A DNA stretch of 23,597 bases from Candidatus Nanohaloarchaea archaeon (GTDB taxonomy: Archaea > Nanohalarchaeota > Nanosalinia > Nanosalinales > Nanosalinaceae). The notes beneath the pieces are model-generated. The model saw only the letters and a list, made by a program, of their open reading frames with translations. It searched no databases and was not told the origin of the DNA. The position numbers and the translations under genes were made by a program. Positions 3,107 through 21,519 of this stretch are shown here, piece by piece (the stretch's first letter is position 1; the number at the start of each line of letters is the position of its first letter). Location of the stretch: NCBI GenBank assembly GCA_042217585.1, contig JBDGSJ010000032.1:1-23597 (forward strand), given 5' to 3'.

Positions 3107-3925
3107 TTAACTGTCGATGAACTCGAACGGGGTATCCACTTCCTCCATCTTTTCCCACGGGACGTTCGTCACTCCGACGAGGATCAGGCCCAGCGCGATG
3201 TCGTAAAGGGCGAAGGCCGCAAGGTACAGCCTGCTGGTGTGGGTAGGAGCCCAGAGTATGTAGGTGCCTCCCATGAACGCCATGCCGGCGGACAGCCATC
3301 TCAGCCCTCTCTTCCCTGTACCGCGTGAGTACTTCCAGAAGAGGTACGCGAAGGTGAAGGTCACAGGCACCCAGATGAACGACGTGAAGCCGTACATGGT
3401 GTACTCTATGCTTTTCTGGACCAGGAGACCCCACGCGAACCAGGAGTAGCCTGCCAGCAGTATCGTTCCGGGAACGAGCCTCCTGTAGAACCCGGAGCGC
3501 ATACGGAACTTCACCAGGCCGTAGCCTATCGCCGCCGCCCAGATTATCATGAACTGGCGTGTGAGGAAGAATTTGGAGGGCAACGATTCAGTGTATAGGC
3601 CGAGGGCATCCAGCAGGACCCCAAGCATCACGATGCCGTAGAGCACGAAGGCGCCTCCCCATATCAGCGGGATGTTGTCCCTGAGGTCTCCGCTGACCGG
3701 TTCTAGGGACCTCCCGCGGTGGATGAGGTAAAGTCCGGTCAGGACGAGGTAGAAAAGACCGGTGCCTGACAGCAGCATGATCTGGAGGGATGAACCCTCT
3801 GGAAAGGACCCGGGAGCGATCACAGACTTCTCGGACACCGCGTAGATCCCGTAGAGATAGAGGGCCGCCACAAGGGAGACAAGTCCGGGGTTGTCCGAGA
3901 GAAAGCCCCTGAGATTCTGTCCCAT
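3107..3925 (-). CDS. Uncharacterised polytopic membrane protein (~7-8 TM)
   Basis: 272 aa with about eight hydrophobic segments separated by short, often basic loops; AT-rich upstream region; no recognisable motif. Confidence 0.8.
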   Translation of the reverse strand: MGQNLRGFLSDNPGLVSLVAALYLYGIYAVSEKSVIAPGSFPEGSSLQIMLLSGTGLFYLVLTGLYLIHRGRSLEPVSGDLRDNIPLIWGGAFVLYGIVMLGVLLDALGLYTESLPSKFFLTRQFMIIWAAAIGYGLVKFRMRSGFYRRLVPGTILLAGYSWFAWGLLVQKSIEYTMYGFTSFIWVPVTFTFAYLFWKYSRGTGKRGLRWLSAGMAFMGGTYILWAPTHTSRLYLAAFALYDIALGLILVGVTNVPWEKMEEVDTPFEFIDS

Positions 3926-4570: not shown

Positions 4571-6232
4571 TCATCCTTCGTCGGCTTCTATGTACCTTCG
4601 GATCTCCCTCAGGCTGTCCTCCCTGAGCTCATCCCTGTAGTCCTCGTTCTCCAGGACCCCCTCCACGTGCTCGACTATGAGCTCCGAGCTCATTATCTCT
4701 GGGTAGTACACGTAGGTCGCGTCCTTCCTGACGAGTTCGCTGGCGTGCTCGGGGTCCGTTGCACCCAGTATCAGATCCGTGTCGTCAGCCATGTCCAGCA
4801 TCCTGCTTGATACCTCCCTGTTCGGAACTGAAGAGACCACCAGTTTCGCCTCGTCCAGCTGGGCGATGTTCCAGGTTTTCTGGTCCATTATATCTCCGAA
4901 GACGTAGTGTTCCTCCTTCTCTTTTATCTCGGAGATCTTCTCGGGGTCGTTCTCTATGACGACGAACTCCTGGCCTTCCTCCTTCAGGGCTTCGATGACT
5001 CTCTTGCCTTCGGTGCCGTATCCCACCACTCCGACGTGGTCCTCGAACTCGGTGACGTTTATCTTGTTCTCTATCTTCCTCCTCGTGGAGCTTATCAGGT
5101 TGAGTCCCGAGAGAAGCCTGTATATCTGGTTCTCGTGCTTGCTGGTGTATGAGGAGGTTATCATGGATGCAGTGGCCGCCATCACGACGGAGTGGAAGAG
5201 CGGGTCGCTCAGGGTCCCTGCTATGTGGGCCTCGATCGCTATTATCAAGGAGAACTCGCTTATCTGGTCCAGGTTGAAACCGGTCAGGTAGGCGGTCCTG
5301 TCGTCGAATCCCTGGAGCATCAGGGAGATTGCAGTCACCATCGGCTTGAGGGCTCCGACGAGCAGGAAGAGGACGGTCGCCGTCAGGAGTACCCTCGGGG
5401 TCGGGTAGGAGACCAGTGCTCCGAGACCTATGAAGAATATCGCTGAGAAGAAGTCCTTCAGCGATCCCGTGGTGTCGACTATCTCGATGTTGTGGGGGAA
5501 CTTGGCGACTGCCAGTCCTGCGGCGAACGATCCTGCGACTATCGATATCCCCATGTACTGGGCTATCCCGACGAAGCCGGTCAGGAACGAGATGGATACA
5601 AGCATCAGGAGTTCCCGGGAACCGTCGGTCAGGTCCGCGATGAAGTCGAAGATGTACCACCTGATCAGTAGACCGATTATTATGAGCGTGAACCCGTCTA
5701 TTATCGTCCCGAGGACCGTGGTCGGGTTGAAGGTCGTCAGCGTCAGGGTCAGTACCGCGACTATCGCGATCATGTCCTGTACCAGCTGGATGGATTCCGC
5801 CAGCCTGCCGTGGATCAGGTCCAGGTACATCTCACTCTCTATCAGTCTCATGCCGACGAGCGAGGAGCTCAGGCTTGCTGCCACGGTGAAGAAGAGTGAG
5901 TCCAGGTGGCTGTATCCCATGAGCTTCGCCAGAGAGTAGGCTGTTATACCGACCACGAGGACCTGTATCGAGGTCGCCAGCTGGCTCTCCTTGGCCACTG
6001 ACTCGATCCTCTCGGGGTCCAGTTTCACGCCGAATATGAAGACGAGGAACGCGATACCTATCTCCGCCAGTATCATTATCTCTTTCTGGGGTATGAAGAT
6101 GCTGGAAAGCACTCCGGCGATTATGTAAGCTGGGATGGCGGGATGGGAGAACATATCCAGCACGTGGAGGACCACTGACGCGATCAGGAATATAACTGTC
6201 AGTATGTAGATTACTTCAGCCAGTATCACCAC
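4571..6232 (-). CDS. CPA2 (KefC-like) cation:proton antiporter with C-terminal RCK-N (TrkA-N) domain
   Basis: Multiple TM helices; SLSSS, QD, G-x-F-x-AG, DFF-x-x-IFF, QISEFSLI motifs; Rossmann VVGYGTEG and V-x-GD. Confidence 0.92.
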   Translation of the reverse strand: MVILAEVIYILTVIFLIASVVLHVLDMFSHPAIPAYIIAGVLSSIFIPQKEIMILAEIGIAFLVFIFGVKLDPERIESVAKESQLATSIQVLVVGITAYSLAKLMGYSHLDSLFFTVAASLSSSLVGMRLIESEMYLDLIHGRLAESIQLVQDMIAIVAVLTLTLTTFNPTTVLGTIIDGFTLIIIGLLIRWYIFDFIADLTDGSRELLMLVSISFLTGFVGIAQYMGISIVAGSFAAGLAVAKFPHNIEIVDTTGSLKDFFSAIFFIGLGALVSYPTPRVLLTATVLFLLVGALKPMVTAISLMLQGFDDRTAYLTGFNLDQISEFSLIIAIEAHIAGTLSDPLFHSVVMAATASMITSSYTSKHENQIYRLLSGLNLISSTRRKIENKINVTEFEDHVGVVGYGTEGKRVIEALKEEGQEFVVIENDPEKISEIKEKEEHYVFGDIMDQKTWNIAQLDEAKLVVSSVPNREVSSRMLDMADDTDLILGATDPEHASELVRKDATYVYYPEIMSSELIVEHVEGVLENEDYRDELREDSLREIRRYIEADEG

Positions 6233-7898
6233 CCCACTTCAGCTTGTTCATCTCGGGTTCGACCTCCTCGCTGAACAGCTCCTCGTCCTCCAGGTAAATC
6301 TTCACGTACTCGCTGACGCGCTCCCCTGTCAGTATCTTTTTCTGTATGACGTAGTGCGCTCCCAGGTCGTAGAACTCGGCCGCGTGGTCCAGCCGGATGG
6401 CCTCGACGAAGACTGTCGCGTCCTCGTCCACCTCCTCCAGAGCCTCCTTGTTCACTATCTCGTCAGGGGTGACGGACAGAACGAAATCCGCCTTGCTGAT
6501 CCCTGCGGCCTTCCTTATCTCACCGTGCTTGAAATCTCCATAGATGTACTCGTAAGGGGACTGCTCCAGCTTCCGGGCCTTCTCCGGATCCTTGTCGACT
6601 ATCACAAGCTGGTCGTAATGTCTCTTCAGGAGGCTTATAGCCTCTTTCGACATCTCGTCGTAACCGATTATGACTGCATGGTCCTCGAGCGGCTCGAACT
6701 CCACGTCCTGCTTCTCCTCCGACTCCAGGACAGCAAGTATGTGTTCTATCTCGTCGTATATCTGCTGTGAGAACGTGATCAGGTAGGATGACATCGCTAT
6801 GCTCGCTACCGCCATTATGCTAAGGAAACCTACCGCTCCTCCTCCGAGCAATCCTTTCTGGACCCCAAGGGAGCCTAGTATCAGGGCGAACTCGCTGACC
6901 TGTGTCATGTTGATCGATGTCTTGAACGATGTCTCCGGTGTGAACTTGAGCCGGTCCACTATGGTGAAGAATGTAGCGAACTTCCCTATGACCATCACCA
7001 CTGCGGCCGCCAGAGCAGGTACGAACATCCCTGCTATCTGGGATGGCTGGAGACCCAGTCCTATCGTTATGAAGAATATCGCGATGAAGAAGTCGGTCAG
7101 CGGCCGGACCCTCTCCAGCAGTTCGCTGCTGTAAGGTATCTGGGCGAAGCTGAGTCCGGCCATGAACGCACCTATCTCCATCGAGACGCCCAGCCAGTTC
7201 GCCATCGTGATGAAGGTGAAGGCGTGCGCCAGACCGTGGATGAAGAACGCGTGCTTGTTCTCGGACACGTCCTTTATGATCTTGGGGAGGAAAAGCCTGC
7301 TTGAGCCGAAGGATATCACTCCTATGAGGCCTATGAGAAGCAGTGACTGTCCCATGCTGATCGCGAGTTTCATCAGGTTCGAAGAGCTGCTGGAGAGGAC
7401 CGCCAGCAGGAGGACCACTATGACGTCCTGGAGGAGGAGCACTCCGACGTTCAGTTTACCGGGAGGGGTGGCTATCTCATCCTTCTCTGCCAGAAGCTTG
7501 ACGACGACCGCTGTCGATGAGAACGAGACCGCGGCGCCTATCAGGAGCGACTCCATCATGGCGAAGCCCGCGAACCTTGCCACGATGTATCCAAGCCCGG
7601 TCAGGACCAGTGACTGGAAAACCGTGATTATCAGGGCAGGCCTCTTTATCTCCGAGATCTCCTCAAGGTCGATCTCAAGCCCGATGAGGAACAGCAGAAA
7701 CCCGAGGCCCAGGTGTGATAGAAGACTCGTGAATTCGGTCTCTACGACAGCATCAAGTCCCACCGGTCCGAGTATCATGCCGGTGGCGATGTAGGCGGTG
7801 ACGGTCGGCTGGTTAGTCTTCCTTGCGATTATCCCCAGGACCGTCGCTGTCACTATCATCAGCACGAACCCCTGAGTGTGAATCCCGCCCGACACCAT
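6216..7898 (-). CDS. CPA2 (KefC-like) cation:proton antiporter with C-terminal RCK-N domain, paralog
   Basis: LLFLIGLE, SFSSTAVVVK, LLLQD, GAFMAG, QVSEFALI; RCK with degenerate IIGYDEMS; GAGGT SD upstream of ATG 7898. Confidence 0.92.
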   Translation of the reverse strand: MVSGGIHTQGFVLMIVTATVLGIIARKTNQPTVTAYIATGMILGPVGLDAVVETEFTSLLSHLGLGFLLFLIGLEIDLEEISEIKRPALIITVFQSLVLTGLGYIVARFAGFAMMESLLIGAAVSFSSTAVVVKLLAEKDEIATPPGKLNVGVLLLQDVIVVLLLAVLSSSSSNLMKLAISMGQSLLLIGLIGVISFGSSRLFLPKIIKDVSENKHAFFIHGLAHAFTFITMANWLGVSMEIGAFMAGLSFAQIPYSSELLERVRPLTDFFIAIFFITIGLGLQPSQIAGMFVPALAAAVVMVIGKFATFFTIVDRLKFTPETSFKTSINMTQVSEFALILGSLGVQKGLLGGGAVGFLSIMAVASIAMSSYLITFSQQIYDEIEHILAVLESEEKQDVEFEPLEDHAVIIGYDEMSKEAISLLKRHYDQLVIVDKDPEKARKLEQSPYEYIYGDFKHGEIRKAAGISKADFVLSVTPDEIVNKEALEEVDEDATVFVEAIRLDHAAEFYDLGAHYVIQKKILTGERVSEYVKIYLEDEELFSEEVEPEMNKLKWGGDTG

Positions 7899-9458: not shown

Positions 9459-9839
9459 TTATGATAGCCAGGGTCCGGTTTCGACCGTCACCGCCTGGTA
9501 ATGTGCGTCATCCTCCGCGGCGTAGCTGGATTCACCGACGTTTCTCTTCCGCATCTTCCTTCCCCTCCACTCCGGCTCCTCCAGCTCGTCCACCATGTCG
9601 CTCAGGTCCTCCTGGCTTTCAGCCTCGAGAACGTGGAACTCGGGAGCGCTTCCCGGGGAACCTGTTGCCTTAGGACCTTTCTGCAGGTCCACGTAGAGCA
9701 GGTGTTCGTCTCCGTCCACCTCGTAATCGAACTCAAGTATACTGTAGCCCGCGTGGTCCCGAGTCTCCTCCTCTATTTTCTCCATGAACTCTTCTTCCAG
9801 CGCATCTGGGCCGTCGGATTCAAGGTAGAGCCGTGTCAT
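9459..9839 (-). CDS. Hypothetical acidic protein with two small beta-alpha-beta-beta-like units
   Basis: 126 aa acidic ORF with its own BRE/TATA (CGAAACTGTTTTAA) upstream; fills the intergenic space. Confidence 0.75.
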   Translation of the reverse strand: MTRLYLESDGPDALEEEFMEKIEEETRDHAGYSILEFDYEVDGDEHLLYVDLQKGPKATGSPGSAPEFHVLEAESQEDLSDMVDELEEPEWRGRKMRKRNVGESSYAAEDDAHYQAVTVETGPWLS

Positions 9840-11987: not shown

Positions 11988-12371
11988 TTAAAACCCTACC
12001 GTGGACCTGTTGATAGCCTCAAGGTGGTCTCCGCTCCGAATTATGACCACTTCGCGGCTCCTGTCCAGCAGCCGCTCCTTCAGTTCCCTGTCGTTCGTGG
12101 CGATCACGAACTCGTCCGAGACATCCACCAGTATGTCGTCGACCTCTTCCTCTCTTTCAGTCTCCAGGACCTCCATCTCCTGTGTTTCGATCAGTTTCTC
12201 CACGAGGTCCCCGTACTTCCCTCCCTCGATGCTCTTCGCCTCCTGCAACGCGTCCTTCAGCGTGTAGATCTCTGCCTCGGGATAGAGCCGGTCCAGTTCG
12301 CCGAAAAGGTCCAAGGAGAGCTGGAACGGGGCGACCAGGAAGTTCGTGTCCAGCAGGATTTTCTTCTTCAC
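11988..12371 (-). CDS. PIN-domain protein (Fcf1/Utp24-like archaeal family)
   Basis: LLDTNFL, VDD, IATND-x-ELK motifs; usual neighbour of rpoE'. Confidence 0.9.
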   Translation of the reverse strand: MKKKILLDTNFLVAPFQLSLDLFGELDRLYPEAEIYTLKDALQEAKSIEGGKYGDLVEKLIETQEMEVLETEREEEVDDILVDVSDEFVIATNDRELKERLLDRSREVVIIRSGDHLEAINRSTVGF

Positions 12372-12423: not shown

Positions 12424-13368
12424 ATGGATGAACAGGTGAAGGTCGGCGTGTTATGGGATGAAGAGGTAGAATGGGGCCGTGAAACACCCTTCGATGACGA
12501 AGTGGTCGACAGCACGCTGGCCGCCTTCACATCAGAGGCGCGGAAGGAGGACGCTGAGTTCTACATCGCGAAGTTCCAGTGGTACGGTTCAGGACGGCTG
12601 GACAGGGCCTTCCGGTGGACAGGTGAAAGATGGGAGAAGGTCCACGGAGTCGATATACATGCTGTTTTCGACAAGTTCAAGTACACGGAGAAAACGCGGG
12701 AGCTGAAGGAGGAGATACAGGAAGAGCTATGCATACTGAACGATCCGGAGCTGGAGAGGCTCTGCAAGGACAAGTACATGACCTACCGGAGGATACCGGA
12801 CAGGGTCCCGGAGACCAGGGAAGGGACCCACGAGAACATCGAGGAGATGCTCGAGGAACACGGCGAAGTCGTCGTGAAGCCGAGGTACGCCTTCGGTGGA
12901 AAGGGAATACAGATAATAGAAAACGTCGAGGAGCTGGATGAATCCGGAGAGGAGTACGTGGTCCAGAGGTTCGTGGATAGCTCAGGAGGGATACCGGGCA
13001 TGGTGGACGGCACGCACGACCTGAGAGCCATCGTCATCAACGGCGAGGTCTCTGGAGCCTACCTCAGGTACAATCCGGGAAGCAGGCTCAGCAACGTCTC
13101 CCAGGGAGGAGAGAAGGAACACGTCAGCCTCGAGGAGTTCCCGGATGACGGCATGGAAGTCGTGGGAGATGTAATCGAAGAGATGGATGAGTACGAACCC
13201 GCGGTCTACTCCGTGGACCTCTTCTACGACAGCGAAGGAGAACCATGGGTCGTGGAGCTGAACTCCAAGCCGGGGTTCAACTTCTTCGACGACCCGGAAC
13301 TGGAGAGGTCCGCGAGAAAGATGATGGGAGAGATCGGGGCCACGCTAAGGGAACTGGCCGAGTCCTAG
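12424..13368 (+). CDS. ATP-grasp ligase (RimK/GshB/YheCD-like)
   Basis: DK, P-x-T, VVKPRYAFGGKGI, VQRF, DLR, SNVSQGG, SVD and ELNSKPG motifs. Confidence 0.88.
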   Translation: MDEQVKVGVLWDEEVEWGRETPFDDEVVDSTLAAFTSEARKEDAEFYIAKFQWYGSGRLDRAFRWTGERWEKVHGVDIHAVFDKFKYTEKTRELKEEIQEELCILNDPELERLCKDKYMTYRRIPDRVPETREGTHENIEEMLEEHGEVVVKPRYAFGGKGIQIIENVEELDESGEEYVVQRFVDSSGGIPGMVDGTHDLRAIVINGEVSGAYLRYNPGSRLSNVSQGGEKEHVSLEEFPDDGMEVVGDVIEEMDEYEPAVYSVDLFYDSEGEPWVVELNSKPGFNFFDDPELERSARKMMGEIGATLRELAES

Positions 13369-14361
13369 ATCTTCCCTGAGTTCCCGGGCGGCGTCCAGAC
13401 GTTTCTTTCTTGCCTCTTCGATACCTATCTCCTCTTCTCCGGCTACCTCTTCCGCGTATATCCTGTAGCTGTCCGTTTCAAAACCGGCGTCCTCGAGGTA
13501 TCCCCGGACCTCCCGGGTCAGACCGTCCTCCATCGCCTCCCGCGAGAGGTCCTTCAGTTCCTCGAACTCCGGGAGCTCGACATCGCTTTCCATCACCCTG
13601 AAAAGGTCCCTGACGAGCTGGAACAGGTTAGAGGGAAGCGAGGTGTCCGGCGACCTCCACTCGACGGTGGGGAACTGTTTCCGGAGCCGGACCGGGGTCC
13701 AGAGAGCGTCCTCGGGCCTGAAATGTTCCCTCACGGTCTCCCTGTCTATCCCCTCCTTCTCGGCGGCTGAGATCCATTCCCTGAACCTTTCATCGATCCT
13801 CCGGTCCCATTCCTCCACTGAGTCCACGAAACTCCAGAGCTGTCCGTGTCCCGGGAACTCGCTGTAGCACCTGTACCTGTACACGAGGTTCCTTGACGAG
13901 CTCCCGAGCCGCTCTCCCTGGTAGTATGGTGAGGAGTTCATCAGTGCCAGCGCGGGGTCGATAGCGGTCAGGCGGTTCAGCTGTTCCGCAACATCCTCCT
14001 TCTCGAAGTGTACGTGGGTGCCCGCGACGCGCTCCGCGGCCCTCAGGTCCTCGCCGATTATCTCCTGCTGTATCCTGCCTCTCTCCGAGTCCACTGCCTC
14101 GATCTCCCCCGAGTTCAGGGGTGTGCCGAGCGGGACTATGTGAAGACCGAGTTCCTCTGCCTTCTCCACGGACCTCTCGATCTTCTCCCTGACGGAATCG
14201 ATGAGCTCCTCCGGGTCGGAGCGGGGCCCTGTCTTTATCTCGAAGAGCGGTTCGACGAACTCCTGCTCGGAGAAATCAAAGCTGTCTGCCAGTTCACGGC
14301 AGGAGACCAGTTCTCCGTTCCCGTCCACGGTCCAGTACTCCAGTTCAAGCCCGGCCTTCAT
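13345..14361 (-). CDS. Glutamate-cysteine ligase family 2 (GCS2/YbdK-like carboxylate-amine ligase)
   Basis: GLELEY, E-x-x-x-P-x-x-EIKT, GTHVHF, SSPY, W-x-PVR and TVEWRSPD motifs. Confidence 0.9.
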   Translation of the reverse strand: MKAGLELEYWTVDGNGELVSCRELADSFDFSEQEFVEPLFEIKTGPRSDPEELIDSVREKIERSVEKAEELGLHIVPLGTPLNSGEIEAVDSERGRIQQEIIGEDLRAAERVAGTHVHFEKEDVAEQLNRLTAIDPALALMNSSPYYQGERLGSSSRNLVYRYRCYSEFPGHGQLWSFVDSVEEWDRRIDERFREWISAAEKEGIDRETVREHFRPEDALWTPVRLRKQFPTVEWRSPDTSLPSNLFQLVRDLFRVMESDVELPEFEELKDLSREAMEDGLTREVRGYLEDAGFETDSYRIYAEEVAGEEEIGIEEARKKRLDAARELREDLGLGQFP

Positions 14362-14364
14362 CTC

Positions 14365-15258
14365 TTATGCACCTTCGCCGGTACCGTGTTTTTCGATAGC
14401 TCTCTCGTGGAGTCTCTCCACTATCTCCAGTATAACGTCCTCTCCGACCGTCTCGTTTATCTGCTCGTTGAGTCCCGGGGACTTGTTGACCTCCAGGACG
14501 TAGGCCCCGTCCTCCATCTCGATGACGTCGCATCCGCAGATGTCGAACCCTGTCGCCCTCGCCGCCTTCAGCGCTGCCTCACCTATCTTATCTGTTATCT
14601 CGGCCTTCAGTCTTTCTCCGCCGCCCGAGATGTTGGACCTCCATTCGTCTCCCGAGCTGGACCTCTGGTAGCCGACGAGGTGATCGCCGATCACAAGTAT
14701 CCTGTTGTCCGTGCCCTCGTGCTCCTTGTACTCCTGGAGGCATATATCCTGCTCGAACGCCTTCATGGTGTCCATGACAGGCTTCAGCTCGTTCTCGGAG
14801 GACGCCCGCATCACCCCCTGTCCTCCGGCACCTCCGATGGTCTTCATTATCACGGGGTAGCCGAGGTCCTTGGCCGCGTTCACCGCGGTCTCTGGTGAAA
14901 GGGTGTAGACGCTCTCCGGTACGTTCACCCCGTTTTCGGCCAGGACCTTCACGGAGTAGAACTTGTTCGATTCGTACGCGGGGCTGTCGTTCTCGCACTG
15001 TGTGACCACTCCGGCCTCGTTGAGGACCTCCGGCAGGTGCTCGGAGAACAGCGTGTCCTGGTCCCCGGTTCTGACGTAGGCGGCGTCGAACTCCGTCAGG
15101 TCCGTCCCCTTGTAGTAGACGCTGCTGCCGTCCTCCCCGTGGACGAACTTGCAGCCCTCTATCGGGGCCGCCAGGACCGAGTCGAATATGTCTTCAGCTC
15201 TCTCTATTATCAGCTGGTGGGTCGTCGATATCTCGCCGTAGATTATAGCGAGTTTCAC
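14365..15258 (-). CDS. RimK/LysX-family alpha-L-glutamate ligase-like ATP-grasp enzyme
   Basis: NK, GYPVIMK-x-x-x-GAGGQGV, QEY, D-x-R, WRSNISGGG, GCD and LEVN-x-SPG; GTG start overlaps the upstream TGA (GTGA). Confidence 0.92.
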   Translation of the reverse strand: MKLAIIYGEISTTHQLIIERAEDIFDSVLAAPIEGCKFVHGEDGSSVYYKGTDLTEFDAAYVRTGDQDTLFSEHLPEVLNEAGVVTQCENDSPAYESNKFYSVKVLAENGVNVPESVYTLSPETAVNAAKDLGYPVIMKTIGGAGGQGVMRASSENELKPVMDTMKAFEQDICLQEYKEHEGTDNRILVIGDHLVGYQRSSSGDEWRSNISGGGERLKAEITDKIGEAALKAARATGFDICGCDVIEMEDGAYVLEVNKSPGLNEQINETVGEDVILEIVERLHERAIEKHGTGEGA

Positions 15259-16067
15259 TGGTCCTCACCTCTCAGGACTTCTGCGAGGCTTTCGTACGCG
15301 TTCTTCCCGGAGACCTCTGTGTACGTCTGGAGGTCCGGGTTCGGGTTCACGTCCACTACCTGGCCATCCCTTATCAGGACCTCTGCGCATTCAGTGCCTA
15401 TCTTCCGCGCCGTGGTCTTCGCCAGTTCCCTCAGGTCCCTGGACATGTTCGTGTACTTCAGGTTGTCGGTCGACATCTCCCAGGTCTCTGTAGTGTCTGC
15501 GAGGGAGATCACGTTGTCGCCGGTGACGAGACAACGGTATTTGTCTCCCCGGTTCAGGCTGTGGAATATCAGGAAGTTCTCTCCGTACTCCACTCCCTCG
15601 GTGAACTCCTCGACGTCGTCCATGTCCTCCAGTTCGGATTTCTCCACCTCTTTCAGTTCGTGGAACCTCTTCCCGACGACAGGTGCCTCCAGGTGGTCTC
15701 CCAGGTTCCTCATGGCCTTCTCCTCAGCTATCACCACGGTCTTCGGAGCGCTAACCCCCTTCTCGTGAAGCGTGTGGTAGAGGTAGTTCTTCTTCGCCAT
15801 GATGAAGAAGCCGGTCGAGGGATAGTTCAGCCTGATACCTTTCTCCTCCATCATCTCCAGGAGGACCCTGCCGAAGACTGCGTTTTTGGCCGGTATCTCG
15901 GCGAAAGCGGCGTCGTACTCCGAGACACTCCTCCCGTTGAATGTAACGTCGGCCCTCTCCCTGCTGACCCACGGCGCGAGCTGGTCCACCCCCACGTGCT
16001 CCACATCCTCGAACAGCGGATCGAACTCTTCGTGCTCGTTCTCCGTTATCTTCAGCGCTTTCATCAT
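15255..16067 (-). CDS. Divergent RimK-like ATP-grasp protein, possibly catalytically degenerate
   Basis: N-x-P...K, GV-x-x-P-x-T, PVVGK, D-x-x-R and DVNPNP are recognisable, but the Gly-rich loops are missing; AGGTGA SD (true start may be 16064). Confidence 0.8.
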   Translation of the reverse strand: MMKALKITENEHEEFDPLFEDVEHVGVDQLAPWVSRERADVTFNGRSVSEYDAAFAEIPAKNAVFGRVLLEMMEEKGIRLNYPSTGFFIMAKKNYLYHTLHEKGVSAPKTVVIAEEKAMRNLGDHLEAPVVGKRFHELKEVEKSELEDMDDVEEFTEGVEYGENFLIFHSLNRGDKYRCLVTGDNVISLADTTETWEMSTDNLKYTNMSRDLRELAKTTARKIGTECAEVLIRDGQVVDVNPNPDLQTYTEVSGKNAYESLAEVLRGEDQ

Positions 16068-16118
16068 TTCACCTGTCTTTCCCGGATAAAAGAAGCTCTG
16101 TCCGGAGGACAGGTCGTT

Positions 16119-17672
16119 TCAGGTATCTTCGCCATCCCCATCCCCTCCCTGATTTTGACCCGGGCTCCAGAGCCGGGTTATCTTCTCCCTGCTTCTCCAC
16201 TGCTCCATGTAGTCCTCCATCGGACCGGGAGTCACGTTCTTCAGTATCCTTCCCTGCCTCATCATCCTTCTCAGCCTCGATTCCAGGGTCTTCGAAAGCT
16301 CGTCGTAGTAGTCCTTCTCCGAGTAGATCAGGTCGTTCTTGATCCTCCAGTAGGCGGTGGTTCCCTCCGGCGCGAGGACGATGTATCCTCTCTTGTGGTC
16401 GAACTCCGCCATCGCCTCCTTCAGCCGGTCCTTCTCGATGTAATATACGCCGCCCTTCGTCCCGCTCGGGTCCATCACCAGGACCTCGCTTCCCTCGACA
16501 CCCACCGACAGGACGTAATGACCGGTGGTCGCCTCCGGGAAGATCTCCGGCTTGTAGAAGTTCGGTATTATCAGCGCCCCATCGTTGAACCAGGCCTTGA
16601 ACTCGTCGCCCAGATCCCCTATCTTGTCGTACTCTACCCAGGCCGTCTTCACGTCCTCGTTGGTCAGGTCCTCGACAGCCTCCATCAGGTCCGGTACATC
16701 GGTTCCCTCGCCGACCTCGCATCCTGCTTTCTCACCTATCTCGTCCTGGTCGTGCCTGTAGCCGAATATCTCAAGAGCCATCTCGGCCGACGCAGGTCCG
16801 CAGAATGATGGATGCTGTGTGACGAAGTAACTGGTTATGTCCTCCATCGTCTCAAGGTCGCTCTGAGTCCTCTTGAATTTGAGCGGCGACTCCATGATCT
16901 CCCTGTTCGGCGTGAGCAGTGTGTAGCCGGTGTCCGTGTCCACAGTGGTGGAGAACAGTGAGACGTCCCTTATCTCACCGCTTTCCTCCTCCATCCGGAC
17001 CTCCTCTCCCGGTCTGACTATCCTCGAGTTCTTGAGGTATATGCCGGCGGCGAAGTTCTGGAAGAGGTCCTTGAAGCCGTAGAACAGGAGCCCGGCGATC
17101 AGGAACGCTATCGCCCACGAAGACGCGTTTACAAGCTCACTGAGAAGTGTCTGCCCTATCCCCATCTGGTCAAAGACTATCTGAAGGAGGATGAGGTACA
17201 GGAATCCCTTGACCAGCATCGTCACGAAGTTAAAGGCGTCTCCCGAGAGGCCTGCTTCCCTGAAGTATCTCTGGGCTCCGAGCGTTTTCAGGAACCGTTT
17301 CCCGGCCTCCGTGGTTATGTCAATTATTATGATCCCGAGGACTCCCAGCATCAGCACGGAAAGGGCCTGCGGCGCGAGCTCAACGAGCTTCTGGTAAAGT
17401 TTCGTGGTCACCGGGCTGTTGAGGTAGAATAGAGCGCCGAGCACAGCCGCCCCGTCAAGTATGTAGGACGCCTGATGTATGAACTTCTCTCGTCTCTCGA
17501 CCTCTTTCCTCGTGGCTTCTTCTCTCCGGTCGATCCAGAGCCTCCTCGCGACAGCAGCGAAGAGTTTGACTGCCGTATGACCCACGACCAGTATCGCAAG
17601 GGTCAGAAGTATCCTAACTCCCGTGCTGCCGCTCGATGCGAAGTTGAGCAGAGAAGTAACAGGATCGACCAT
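16119..17672 (-). CDS. MscS mechanosensitive channel fused to a C39/phytochelatin-synthase-like cysteine (trans)peptidase domain
   Basis: About five TM helices, then the MscS beta domain (FQNFAAG...PGE-x-V...GEI-x-x-VSLFST...PN), then TQHPSFCGPAS (C291), GHYV (H385), VMDP (D401) and AM-x-x-x-D-x-x-RGYIV. Confidence 0.88.
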   Translation of the reverse strand: MVDPVTSLLNFASSGSTGVRILLTLAILVVGHTAVKLFAAVARRLWIDRREEATRKEVERREKFIHQASYILDGAAVLGALFYLNSPVTTKLYQKLVELAPQALSVLMLGVLGIIIIDITTEAGKRFLKTLGAQRYFREAGLSGDAFNFVTMLVKGFLYLILLQIVFDQMGIGQTLLSELVNASSWAIAFLIAGLLFYGFKDLFQNFAAGIYLKNSRIVRPGEEVRMEEESGEIRDVSLFSTTVDTDTGYTLLTPNREIMESPLKFKRTQSDLETMEDITSYFVTQHPSFCGPASAEMALEIFGYRHDQDEIGEKAGCEVGEGTDVPDLMEAVEDLTNEDVKTAWVEYDKIGDLGDEFKAWFNDGALIIPNFYKPEIFPEATTGHYVLSVGVEGSEVLVMDPSGTKGGVYYIEKDRLKEAMAEFDHKRGYIVLAPEGTTAYWRIKNDLIYSEKDYYDELSKTLESRLRRMMRQGRILKNVTPGPMEDYMEQWRSREKITRLWSPGQNQGGDGDGEDT

Positions 17673-17683
17673 AACCTCTTTTC

Positions 17684-17710
17684 ACCCCTCGGGGTATAAA
17701 AACTCTTTCG
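17684..17710 (-). promoter_or_regulatory. BRE/TATA promoter of the MscS-ligase operon with an adjacent palindrome
   Basis: Minus strand CGAAAGAG-TTTTTATA about 25 nt upstream of ATG 17672, followed by ACCCC-GA-GGGGT. Confidence 0.65.
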
Positions 17711-17713
17711 ATT

Positions 17714-18904
17714 TCACTCTGTGGATTTGATCCTTCCGTGGCCGATAAGCCGCCAGCGAGAGCCTATCTGACGGGAAATCGCGATGCGGTCTCCCTCCTC
17801 TGCGCATATCGGGACCTTCAGGTTGAGCCTTACGTTCTTCCCGGCCTGGGTCACCACTCCGGCGGATTTGCCGGTACCGACGTTGATCATCAGAGCCTCC
17901 TTTTCCTTTATGTTTTCGACCTCGTCCTCTCCCTCGGAGCCAACGATCCGGTCCATAAGTTCAGTCTCCACCTCTATGCTGTCCGTGGTGTCCGGAAGTT
18001 CACCCTTCCGGCCCAGCACGTTGCCCGAGAGGCCATCCGACTTGGTCATCGCAGGGTCAAGCTCAGTTTCGATAGCGAGGAGTCCTCCCGGGGTGCCTTT
18101 CTCCACGGGCGTCGAGCCGTGCATGACGCTCCGGACCTCGGTCGTCACGGAGTACCAGTTATCCCCGTCTCTGATCCCCGGCCTTATCTCTATCTCCTCT
18201 CCTTCCTCGAGCTCTCCCTGTATCAGGCTACCGCCGACCACTCCTCCCCGGAGGTCGCCGGGCTCAGTTCCGGGCTTGTTGATGTCAAAGGACCGCGCGA
18301 CCAGCATCCTCGGCTCCGCGTCACGGTCCCTCTCCGGCGTGGGTATCTCGCTTTCAATCGCCTCGAGGACTTTGTCGATGTTTATCTCCTGCTGTGCCGA
18401 GATCGGAATCACCGGTGCGTCCTCCGCGACGGTCCCTTCAACGAACTCCTGAATCTCCCTGTAGTTCTCGCGGGCTCTCTCTTCGTCGACTATGTCGACC
18501 TTGTTCTGCACTATCACGATGTTGTCGACCCCGATGATGTCCAGCGCGGCAAGGTGTTCGCGGGTCTGGGGCTGCGGACACTCCTCATCTGCCGCGATGA
18601 CAAGTACTGCACCGTCCATTATCGCGGCGCCGGAAAGGACATTAGCCATCAGCGTTTCGTGTCCTGGAGCGTCCACGAGCGACACGCTTCGGACCTCCTC
18701 TCCGTCACCGTCGACGTTCAGTTCTCCTTCTTCATCCCGGTAGTACGTCACGTCGGCGTACCCGAGCCTGATCGTTATCCCTTTCTTCAGTTCCTCGCTG
18801 TGCTCGTCGGTCCATTTGCCGGAGAGAGCCTGTGTGAGAGTTGTCTTTCCGTGGTCCACGTGGCCCACGAGCCCGATGTTGACTTCAGGTACGCCGTTGG
18901 TCAT
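17714..18904 (-). CDS. eif2g: Translation initiation factor aIF-2 subunit gamma
   Basis: [52 protein letters not shown]. Confidence 0.97.
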
Positions 18905-19423: not shown

Positions 19424-20851
19424 ATGAGGAGCAGAGTTGTCTCGGGGCTGACCGGAAGGATACTGAAGGTCTACTCGGTCCTCACCGCTGTACCTCTCCT
19501 CATAGCCGTTTACTACTCGGAGCCGCTCTCGGTCGTGATAGATTTCTCCGTCGCAGCCTTCACCGCCCTGATAACCGGACATCTGATAGGGTTTCTCGGG
19601 AAGGCCGACGAACCCACGACCTCGGAGGCGCTTATAGCGACGGTCCTCGGATGGGGGCTCGCCATCGTGATAGGAGCCATACCTCTTTTCCGCTACCTGA
19701 CTTTCATGGGTGCCGTCTTCGAGGCCTCATCAGGGCTGACCACGACAGGGATGTCGATGGTCCTCTCGCCGGAAAGCCTTCCGAGGTCAGTGCTTTTCTG
19801 GAGGTCCTTCATGCAGTGGGTGGGAGGCCTCGGCATACTCACGTTCTTCATAGCGATAATCCGTGAATCAGGCGGGGTCTCACGAAGACTTTTCTCCGCG
19901 GAAGCCCACAAGACGGATTCCGGTTCCATAAGACCCTCGCTCTCGAAATCCATAATAGACCTCTGGAGGGTCTACGGCTTCCTCACTATACTCATCGCCT
20001 CCACCTACATCGCCCTGGGCATGGAACCCTTCAACGCGGTCCTCTACGGTTTCTCGACTATATCCACGGGAGGATTCTCCCCGATCAACGCAGGTTTCGA
20101 TGCCTTCTCACAGGCGATACAGAGCGCCGGGATACTGTTCATGTTCATAGGCGGAGTCAACTTCGTCCTGCTGTACCGGTTCCTCCGCGCCGAGGCGAAA
20201 CCTTTCCTCAGGAACTCCGAGTTCAAGATGTACTTCCTCACGTTCGCATCCGTCGGACTCCTGACAGCAGCGACCCTCCTGCCCAGGAGACCCACGATCG
20301 GGAAGGCCTTCCTCGACGGCCTTTTCCAGGCCGCGGCCCTGATCTCCTCCACAGGGTTCTCCACCACACCGGTAATGACGTTCTCAGTGGCTATACAGAC
20401 CCTATTCCTGGCCGTGATGTTCATAGGAGGCTCCCTCGGATCGACCGCGGGAGGACTGAAGATGTTCCGGCTCAAGACGATGATAGAGCTCCTTCGGACC
20501 AGGCTGAGGTCCTACACTCTTCCCGAGAGTGCGATAAACGAGGTCAAGATCGACGGGGAGATACTGGACAGCTCCGCGATCAGGACCATAGCCTCCCTGT
20601 TCTTCGTATGGGTCATAATGGTTTTCATGGGAGCCGTCGCGGTACTGTTCCTCGAGGACATGAGCCTGATATCAGCTCTATCTACCACCGTCTCCACCGC
20701 CGGCAACATGGGACCCGTCTACATCTCCGGTCCTGAACTCGTCGAGACAGGGGTCTACTCCAAGCTCGTGTTCATACTGCTCATGCTCGCAGGAAGGCTG
20801 GAGATGCTCCCGCTGTTGGCACTATTAAATACCAAGCTGTTCAAGGAATAA
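19424..20851 (+). CDS. trkH: Trk system potassium uptake channel TrkH
   Basis: Four pore-loop motifs (SGLTTTG, ISTGGF, SSTGF, GNMGP), WR-x-x-x-QW-x-GGLG, GSTAGGLK, GRLE. Confidence 0.95.
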   Translation: MRSRVVSGLTGRILKVYSVLTAVPLLIAVYYSEPLSVVIDFSVAAFTALITGHLIGFLGKADEPTTSEALIATVLGWGLAIVIGAIPLFRYLTFMGAVFEASSGLTTTGMSMVLSPESLPRSVLFWRSFMQWVGGLGILTFFIAIIRESGGVSRRLFSAEAHKTDSGSIRPSLSKSIIDLWRVYGFLTILIASTYIALGMEPFNAVLYGFSTISTGGFSPINAGFDAFSQAIQSAGILFMFIGGVNFVLLYRFLRAEAKPFLRNSEFKMYFLTFASVGLLTAATLLPRRPTIGKAFLDGLFQAAALISSTGFSTTPVMTFSVAIQTLFLAVMFIGGSLGSTAGGLKMFRLKTMIELLRTRLRSYTLPESAINEVKIDGEILDSSAIRTIASLFFVWVIMVFMGAVAVLFLEDMSLISALSTTVSTAGNMGPVYISGPELVETGVYSKLVFILLMLAGRLEMLPLLALLNTKLFKE

Positions 20852-20859
20852 ACAGGCCC

Positions 20860-21519
20860 ATGTATGTAGTCATAGCAGGGATAAACACGCTCTCAAGGAG
20901 GATGGTCCAGAAGCTGGAGGGCCGCCACGACGTAGTGGTGATAGACGAGGACGAGGACAAGTGCGAGAGGCTCTACTCCTCCTCCGGCGCAACGGTGATC
21001 AACAGGTCCCCGACCATGATCTCGGCGCTCGAGGACGCAGGGATAGGGAAGGCGGACGCGCTGGTATCCACACTGAAGGGAGACAACGAGAACATGGTCG
21101 TCTGCTCCCTGGGAAAGAAGTTCGGGGTCCCCAAGGTCGTCACGAGGCTCGAGGACGACGAATACTTCGACGCGTTCGAGATAATAGGCGCGGAGACCAT
21201 AGGCAACACCGATATACTTCTCTCCGAGTTCCTCTCCGCGATAGAGCACCCGTACCTCGTCAAGCTCGCGAACCTCTCCGGCGGCAGGGAGATACTCAAG
21301 GCCTCGGTGAAGGAGGACTCGAAACTTGCCGGGAAGACCGTGAAGGAGGTGACGGAATCCCGGGGATTCCCCGGAGATTTCAACGTCGTGACGGTCCTGA
21401 AAGGAGAAGAGGTCTACACCTCAAGGATGGATGTAGGCCTGGAGAGCGGCGACGAGATGATAGTCCTGGGCCCCGAGGAGGAAAAGAAGGAGCTGGACGA
21501 TTTCTTCCAGCAACAGTAA
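20860..21519 (+). CDS. trkA: TrkA-family RCK regulatory subunit (RCK-N + RCK-C)
   Basis: VVVID, LEDAGI-x-x-AD, D-x-x-N and the RCK-C pattern (S-x-LAGK-x-V...L-x-x-GD); directly follows trkH. Confidence 0.9.
   Translation: MYVVIAGINTLSRRMVQKLEGRHDVVVIDEDEDKCERLYSSSGATVINRSPTMISALEDAGIGKADALVSTLKGDNENMVVCSLGKKFGVPKVVTRLEDDEYFDAFEIIGAETIGNTDILLSEFLSAIEHPYLVKLANLSGGREILKASVKEDSKLAGKTVKEVTESRGFPGDFNVVTVLKGEEVYTSRMDVGLESGDEMIVLGPEEEKKELDDFFQQQ

Follow-up and report, generated by a model that had tools for sequence, protein, structure and literature searches.

Operons in which ATP-grasp ligases and ligases of the glutamine-synthetase fold are clustered with peptidases were reportedly described by Iyer and colleagues in 2009 as predicted amidoligase operons. 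In the RimK-RimB system (Pseudomonas; E. coli RimK), a RimK-family ligase is paired in an operon with a peptidase, and in RloABC of P. aeruginosa, a membrane pseudo-transglutaminase, an ATP-grasp enzyme and a poly-Glu protease are, according to the available text of PMC12239564, tied to hypo-osmotic survival. Here, we describe a locus in contig JBDGSJ010000032.1 (GenBank assembly GCA_042217585.1; 23,597 nt, the whole of which is called the window below) of a Candidatus Nanohaloarchaea archaeon, in which a fusion of an MscS-type membrane protein with a C39-like cysteine peptidase is followed by ligase-fold genes. The system is near-universal in Nanohaloarchaeota and this channel-peptidase fusion apparently undescribed; on the best reading of our analysis, it would work like RimK/RimB and RloABC but with a different eraser, while belonging to neither. 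No description of the fusion or the operon turned up in the literature searched, beyond which subscription journals and most supplements could hold one. The main text of PMC9765267 has no "RimK", "mechanosensitive" or "ATP-grasp"; in the available parts of PMC10266531, the ligases at this position are labelled "GshAB" and the channel gene a plain small-conductance channel.

An earlier note on this DNA, made from the letters alone, had called five genes with a GTGA overlap, a 3-nt gap and a convergent third ATP-grasp gene. All of this is confirmed: the five open reading frames and their domains (Pfam and NCBIfam profiles, run on the window) are as follows.

16119-17672, minus strand: MscS-C39 fusion, 517 aa (MS_channel_2nd, E 1.5e-8; Peptidase_C39_2, E 2e-7)
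15255-16067, minus strand: dead RimK paralogue, a degenerate ATP-grasp, 270 aa (RimK, E 0.008)
14365-15258, minus strand: RimK-family alpha-L-glutamate ligase, 297 aa (RimK, E 1e-35; TIGR00768)
13345-14361, minus strand: GCS2/YbdK-fold carboxylate-amine ligase, 338 aa (GCS2, E 2e-14)
12424-13368, plus strand: YheC/D- and TTL-like ATP-grasp ligase, 314 aa (Pfam, E 1e-13), convergent on GCS2

The GTGA overlap (dead ATP-grasp/RimK) lies at 15255-15258 and the 3-nt gap (RimK/GCS2) at 14362-14364, while the YheC/D-like ATP-grasp gene overlaps the GCS2 gene convergently by 24 nt.

We searched 70 genomes of the phylum with a profile of the peptidase domain plus tail and examined the locus in all 64 that carry the fusion, which include 27 of the 28 high-quality genomes. 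In every one of these 64 loci (some of them cut by contig ends), fusion, dead ATP-grasp and RimK occur in that order behind the gene for aIF2γ. The proposed co-occurrence in related genomes is thus borne out for this trio. A fixed five-gene pathway is not: GCS2 is present in 13 of the 64 loci and the five-gene form, with GCS2 and the third ATP-grasp, in only eight. Nor is the block the "island" it had been called, since its GC content (0.55-0.60) is that of the rest of the window and the locus is phylum-wide (64/70 genomes); the trio is a fixed locus of Nanohaloarchaeota.

Five of the six fusion-negative genomes were inspected. In two of them, G028 and G033, aIF2γ lies at most about 500 bp from the PIN-domain gene and no match to the RimK profile was found, that is, the site is empty, which agrees with the earlier proposal that the block splits an aIF2γ-PIN gene run. 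In G039, the ligases stand at a contig end, and G025 and G058 were uninformative. A separate peculiarity concerns G012 (L062:8426-11494), where the open frame with aIF2γ has 1,022 codons, far more than in its relatives; this may reflect an upstream extension, a fusion or an insert. As to expression, the available parts of PMC10266531 give for one strain 3,484 reads per kilobase per million (RPKM) for the orthologous channel gene, similar to many ribosomal genes, and 479-995 for the downstream genes, the tags being placed by gene order.

Hydropathy locates five hydrophobic segments, two of them overlapping, in residues 12-198 of the fusion. These are followed by an MscS beta domain (202-263), a papain-like C39 domain (about 272-438) and a conserved helical tail. 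The fusion scores 35 bits with PF00924 (TM3b and beta domain of the MscS family; cut-off 20.2) and 32 bits with PF13529 (C39-like cysteine peptidases; cut-off 24). In the AlphaFold2 model (mean predicted local distance difference test score, pLDDT, 75; predicted template modelling score 0.45), residues 99-267 match MscS with Z 10.8 (Foldseek, VIA-align), and profile comparison with E. coli MscS gives E 7e-12, with the TM3b motif N-x-A-A-G shared. TM3b and the beta domain are likewise common to the MscS family at large, down to its 171-aa short forms (e.g., PDB 9sdg). The difference is that here the peptidase replaces the last cytoplasmic (alpha/beta) domain, no Pfam match to this cage domain being found in the fusion, and that the pore helix is bulkier.

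The peptidase domain has Gln286, Cys291, His385 and Asp401 all intact in the source genome and aligned in papain-like order. Its modelled fold (residues 272-438) is closest to PeiR, an isopeptidase (Z 18.4), followed by ComA (16.0), PCAT1 (15.8) and phytochelatin synthase (15.8). The phytochelatin Pfam profile reaches only 19.2 bits (E 7e-4; cut-off 24.9), so that the phytochelatin-type transpeptidation of the earlier note is not favoured: phytochelatin synthase ties with ComA and PCAT1, below PeiR. With these C39-like relatives, Alr0975 among them, the domain shares the papain-like fold and the Q-C-H-D order at 19-21% identity; PCAT1 and HlyB also have a C39 domain, active or dead, joined to a transporter, which is however of the ABC type, whereas here the partner is a channel. 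An acidic pattern at the C-terminus of the fusion (DE-T/S-x-DN), matched in at least 20 of 63 loci, was considered as an acceptor for RimK and rejected, as at many loci it arises where the start of the following gene is read in the overlapping frame.

RimK falls within its family (TIGR00768, 143.7 bits; cut-off 143.4) and keeps its catalytic residues (K99, K139, E256, N258; R63, R186; WRSN at 206). Across 31 orthologues, K99, K139, D244, E256, N258, R186 and R207-S208-N209 are invariant, and the nearest solved structure is E. coli RimK (115 bits, versus 68 for ArgX-type enzymes). In Pseudomonas RimK, R64, R189 and N262 contact the glutamate chain according to the available parts of PMC10092738; the equivalents of these residues are invariant in the 31 orthologues, whereas the S68 contact aligns with a Gln and is not kept, and the N-terminal contacts fall outside the aligned stretch. 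The protein scores below the equivalog cut-offs for RimK proper, the S6-glutamate ligase (NF007764, 122 versus 331 bits), for LysX/ArgX (110 versus 275.6), for CofF (81 versus 300) and for MptN (118 versus 350). In the source genome (0.98 Mb, 89.7% complete), neither the LysW carrier (PF21344; no LysW-like C-terminus in six frames either) nor the CofE family was found, methanopterin genes not having been searched for. The view that these are not ordinary LysX/ArgX, CofF or MptN orthologues therefore stands.

The 270-aa protein, always positioned between the fusion and RimK, aligns to RimK end to end (profile-profile probability 99.6), but without the Gly-rich loop or the D-x-R, RSN and E-x-N residues. 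Of 11 pairs, five had unsaturated dS, and in these five its ratio of nonsynonymous to synonymous substitution rates (dN/dS) is at most 0.16, which indicates purifying selection, and we regard it as a conserved pseudo-ligase. With the catalytic residues of this ATP-grasp gone, the number of ligase-fold proteins that look active falls from the four of the earlier count to three. GCS2 scores 54 bits with PF04107 (cut-off 21), below all NCBIfam cut-offs, and its motifs ELE, FEIKT, GTHVH, PVRLR and VEWR, of which the acidic, His and Arg motifs have a catalytic role in GCS2 enzymes, are conserved in 13 copies. The YheC/D-like ATP-grasp, found in one to three copies per locus and often beside a metallo-carboxypeptidase of the MATCAP family, conserves its catalytic motifs over 40 copies. 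Complex prediction for RimK, dead ATP-grasp and the C39 domain with its tail gave a median of 0.00 over three runs, a value without bearing on binding.

With RimK-RimB, the locus shares a RimK-family ligase with the R64/R189/N262 equivalents and a peptidase paired with it in the operon; it differs in having as peptidase either MATCAP or a C39 domain that is part of an MscS-type fusion, and in that a dead RimK paralogue is always present. RimB itself (PF05618) was not found in the source genome and occurs in one of the 70 phylum genomes (a control rings in two of 14), so that we do not count the locus as a RimK/RimB system; archaea are not known to have bacterial S6. RloABC is similar in combining a membrane protein that bears a papain/transglutaminase-type domain, an ATP-grasp enzyme and a protease that cuts poly-Glu, the osmotic link being that of RloABC. 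By the available text of PMC12239564, RloB is however a seven-transmembrane protein with an inactive periplasmic domain and RloA a secreted retropepsin, whereas here the membrane part is MscS-type and the domain predicted to be cytoplasmic and intact in 32 of 64 genomes. With another membrane domain, and no PF05618 protein found in the source genome, the locus is not a RloABC system either. The third likeness is to the tubulin ligase/MATCAP pair and bacterial QEGLA (DUF1704): YheC/D- and TTL-like ATP-grasps adjoin MATCAP in 14 of the 20 loci that carry MATCAP. The source genome, however, has the ATP-grasp, and MATCAP was not found in it (89.7% complete); the archaeal MATCAPs have HExxH, and no tubulin substrate is implied.

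The slot after RimK differs between genomes. It holds GCS2 in 13 of the 64 loci, a DUF1611-like P-loop NTPase (often with an AstE/AspA hydrolase) in 18, and MATCAP in 20, where MATCAP is accompanied either by YheC/D-like ATP-grasps (one to three) or by another RimK plus AstE/AspA; seven loci have none of the three and six are cut by contig ends. All slot partners that can be named have a ligase fold or a peptidase/amidohydrolase fold, save one, the P-loop NTPase. The state of the peptidase follows the partner. The Cys and His of the C39 site are both present in all 13 GCS2 loci and all 18 P-loop loci, and at least one is lost in all 20 MATCAP loci, where MATCAP in turn keeps its HExxH (20/20, by alignment). 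Loci with none of the three partners include one intact (G068) and six broken sites, and the six contig-cut loci are all broken. The C39 site is hence intact in 32 genomes and broken in 32 (the states of G008 and G043 are taken from two contigs each).

The same division is seen genome-wide, with MATCAP in none of the 13 GCS2-type genomes and in 27 of the 32 broken-site genomes, and the P-loop protein in 19 of the 70 genomes and none of the 32. Nine of the 18 P-loop genomes have a higher-scoring MATCAP subtype off-locus. The nonsynonymous divergence (dN) of the C39 domain is 0.11-0.24 in five of six broken-site pairs (0.015 in the sixth, very close pair) and 0.003-0.06 in five intact pairs; dN/dS is about 0.1 where measurable. 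On well-supported branches of an aIF2γ tree (57 rows, 54 scored; like the others, a quick tree), all seven independent pairs agree in partner and catalytic state (sign test, p 0.016).

Ten P-loop genomes of family f1 form one clade, grouped with family f3, in both the C39 and the RimK tree, and this clade is rejected for the channel half by the approximately unbiased test (p 0.0003; the group was picked after viewing the trees, and two long-branch rows were excluded). The C39 half thus travels with the ligases and not with the channel half, which places the exchange point within the gene for the fusion. The RimK tree unites the 23 broken-site rows of f1 in one clade (support 88) and those of f4 in another. 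We count at least two independent origins, with different MATCAP subtypes and partner ligases; the co-variation is suggestive and not proof, and linkage contributes to it.

The P-loop protein has a SIMIBI-class fold, for which FtsY, HypB and dethiobiotin synthase tie as matches; DgcN is not among the fold matches listed, and no sequence match in the PDB was better than E 0.29. One DUF1611-like protein (L053:9999-11033, minus strand) has an N-terminal beta domain and a SIMIBI P-loop (model pLDDT 89). Close look-alike clusters exist in bacteria, most without a Pfam family, and no paper on DUF1611 turned up in the literature search. Several further occurrences of slot partners may be recorded here. 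In G039 (L197, C78), the dead ATP-grasp, RimK and the P-loop gene are followed by MATCAP just beyond, a combination seen in none of the other 64 loci; the fusion gene is truncated there by the end of the contig. A longer, second GCS2-like family adjoins a 250-aa AstE/AspA hydrolase elsewhere (L188:5277-7555; L192:4683-6786), and the source genome has two AstE/AspA-type hydrolase genes off-locus (C36:8641-11672; C31:8578-9330).

The fusion is not confined to halophiles. Among 1.84 billion representatives searched with a profile, 76 matched, 50 of them at E 1e-30 or better; five of the 30 clusters that were looked up had a phylum name (four Woesearchaeota, one Iainarchaeota). These fusions are non-acidic (Asp plus Glu 0.08-0.11) and most have the full catalytic set. 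A metagenome scan with 10 non-halophile fusions yielded 69 loci, of which we mapped 43, selected for closeness to the query but with some short ones added. A single mapped locus combines an acidic fusion of the halophile type with the ligase pair behind it, and none of the 23 non-halophile loci with at least 2 kb downstream has ligases nearby, the fusion being intact. As the pattern used for the scan favours intact Cys motifs and a single subclade, the scan establishes that a stand-alone form exists and not how frequent this form is. One non-halophile locus has a gene for an N-formylglutamate amidohydrolase (L140:9548-10531) some 1.8 kb beyond the stand-alone fusion.

From the domains, catalytic states, gene order and co-variation, which are read from the sequences, and from family knowledge for the chemistry, we favour a membrane-tethered build-and-trim cycle for small glutamyl peptides, to which we give a probability of about 0.42. 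GCS2, or the P-loop NTPase elsewhere, would make a first special, probably gamma-linked, amide; RimK, probably as an oligomer with its dead paralogue, would extend the product via alpha-links, as would the YheC/D-like ligase; and the C39 domain would cut or transfer the special link at the inner membrane face, taking the part that RimB plays beside RimK in bacteria. With the loss of GCS2 or the P-loop protein, the special link would no longer be made, and the C39 site would decay, the domain staying as a scaffold while MATCAP would do the trimming instead. Passage of the product through the pore would not be needed.

The constant trio (64/64), the partner-matched catalytic state, the co-exchange of C39 and ligases and PeiR as top fold are together suggestive of this cycle, and a number of points weigh against it. 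G068 is intact with neither GCS2 nor the P-loop protein, six broken loci lack a locus MATCAP, and MATCAP stands off-locus in half of the 18 P-loop genomes and near the P-loop gene in G039. Casting the P-loop protein as a ligase is a guess; its fold is of the SIMIBI class. Cassette exchange between lineages inflates the co-variation counts; as the broken-site RimK rows form one clade in f1 and another in f4, the number of origins may be as low as two or three, and part of the pattern could be due to physical linkage alone. The intact fusions without ligases nearby outside the halophiles speak against tight coupling, and substrate and product are predictions.

Should the cycle hold, the match between catalytic state and partner would predict that C39 cuts the bond made by GCS2 or the P-loop protein, and the co-variation would offer a first handle on prokaryotic MATCAP/DUF1704 and on DUF1611-like P-loop proteins. 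Nanohaloarchaeota are salt-loving symbionts and have genomes of about 1 Mb with few biosynthetic pathways, yet 64 of 70 retain the fusion. The assignment to glutathione synthesis published in PMC10266531, as far as its available parts go, is called into question, for the profile scores do not support "GshAB".

The alternative that survives best, possible although in our view doubtful, is that RimK adds Glu to protein C-termini (eS6, RpoE', stalk proteins) and that C39 or MATCAP removes it again. The closest solved relative of the ligase is E. coli RimK, eukaryotic MATCAP trims tubulin tails, and the locus lies among translation genes. A C-terminal EE is found on eS6 at 33 of 54 loci and on RpoE' at 24 of 46, as against 32 of 945 crudely called proteins of the source genome; in the window itself, though, eS6 ends in QE and RpoE' in EQ, and acidic tails are common in this proteome while related genomes are not independent. 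The off-locus MATCAP recurs at a second site (L179-L186), in several cases near alanyl-tRNA synthetase, and close behind a series of genes with uL10/P0 among them (identified with Pfam at one locus). GCS2 and AstE/AspA enzymes, however, usually act on small molecules, and tail modification would leave the membrane tether unexplained.

A Glu-rich osmolyte peptide, stored by the ligases and cut and released on downshock when membrane tension opens the channel or switches on the peptidase, is in our view unlikely. TM3b and the beta domain are conserved; the neighbourhood contains Trk potassium genes and, in some genomes, another MscS. Hypo-osmotic stress is where RloABC acts, and the channel orthologue of one strain is transcribed at the 3,484 RPKM given above (available parts of PMC12239564 and PMC10266531, respectively). 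The pore helix nevertheless has conserved bulky residues (L195 in 95%, F197 in 91%, Y/F/W at 198, which is Y198 here) where E. coli MscS is Gly/Ala-rich, with a 3-residue gap in this alignment. The genome also encodes a separate, ordinary MscS, and half of the 64 genomes have a broken peptidase site. An extra C-terminal membrane segment, which together with an outer domain marks MscCG-type glutamate exporters, is not indicated by hydropathy, the highest value after residue 216 being 0.78; this speaks against that identity, no direct comparison with MscCG having been made. The earlier idea of a halophile osmolyte with tension-gated export is further weakened by the non-acidic fusions of Woesearchaeota and Iainarchaeota, non-halophilic members of DPANN, often without ligases nearby.

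A more elaborate variant, which we likewise hold to be improbable, would have an MscS-type ring carry a cage of active cysteine peptidases on which the pair of dead and live RimK docks. Membrane stretch would cause a stored glutamyl polymer to be cut and its pieces to be released, and the bond type (gamma or alpha) would be switched by swapping the writer cassette at the breakpoint inside the fusion gene.

That the fusion acts on its own, as a membrane-anchored protease or a regulated channel, with ligases that merely share its promoter, strikes us as rather implausible. It would explain the stand-alone, catalytically intact form (none of 23 non-halophile loci with ligases nearby); the ligases could, however, be elsewhere in those genomes, and clusters resembling the dead ATP-grasp occur in Iainarchaeota, at present a lead only. 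The exchange of the C39 half together with the ligases and the tracking of partner genes by its catalytic state also speak against it.

A glutathione-like thiol pathway, with GCS2 as GshA, an ATP-grasp as GshB and C39 as a turnover enzyme like phytochelatin synthase, is quite unlikely. Alr0975 is among the top folds and the C39 site is intact wherever GCS2 is present, but GshB profiles give 40-61 bits (cut-off 272), GCS2 reaches 61 of the 176 bits set as cut-off for the YbdK subfamily and is missing at 51 of the 64 loci, and a much higher-scoring GCS2 (E 1e-69) occurs elsewhere in two genomes. "GshAB" was assigned to genes at this locus in PMC10266531; in the available table of that paper, the two "GshAB" tags of one strain share a single label, of the glutathione synthase/RimK type, so that neither is a GCS2.

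Finally, a Cdc123-like chaperone role of the dead ATP-grasp, by which the locus would serve assembly or modification of the initiation factor, is very improbable: it is suggested by the constant place directly behind aIF2γ and by Cdc123 being an ATP-grasp protein that binds eIF2γ (PMC4431377, available parts), but the dead protein is RimK-like by profile and fold and not R2K-like, the operon has its own promoter-like box, and two genomes keep aIF2γ without the system.

The flanks of the locus and its promoter-like element are as follows.

17714-18904, minus strand: aIF2-gamma, the constant upstream neighbour, given as a flank with no claim to membership in the system
11988-12371, minus strand: PIN-domain gene, the usual downstream flank, before rpoE'
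17695-17709, minus strand: archaeal promoter-like element, a purine-rich stretch resembling a B recognition element plus TTTTTATA

The TATA-like box TTTTTATA at 17702-17695 stands 23 nt ahead of the fusion ATG, a position that would fit a near-leaderless transcript. At 30 of 58 loci, a similar box stands ahead of an ATG that follows the aIF2γ stop, compared with none of 58 control stretches inside aIF2γ, which agrees with the promoter-led operon of the earlier note, with promoter function as a prediction. A sigma-70 promoter scan of the window, ill-suited to archaea, gave counts at chance level. Between fusion and dead ATP-grasp, whose genes overlap directly in many relatives, a 23-codon open reading frame (16064-16135, minus strand) overlaps the end of the fusion and stops on the start of the dead ATP-grasp. 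Near it lies a T-rich box (16091-16086), and together they resemble what is left of the usual overlap, with a possible internal promoter.

Elsewhere in the window, a 272-aa multi-pass membrane protein after Bud32 (3107-3925, minus strand) and a 126-aa acidic protein before Kae1 (9459-9839, minus strand) have no Pfam match at E 0.1. Two Kef-type antiporter-like genes in tandem (4571-7898, minus strand) and a TrkH/TrkA pair (19424-21519, plus strand) were read from the sequence without profiles, and several potassium-transport genes thus lie within 10 kb of the locus.

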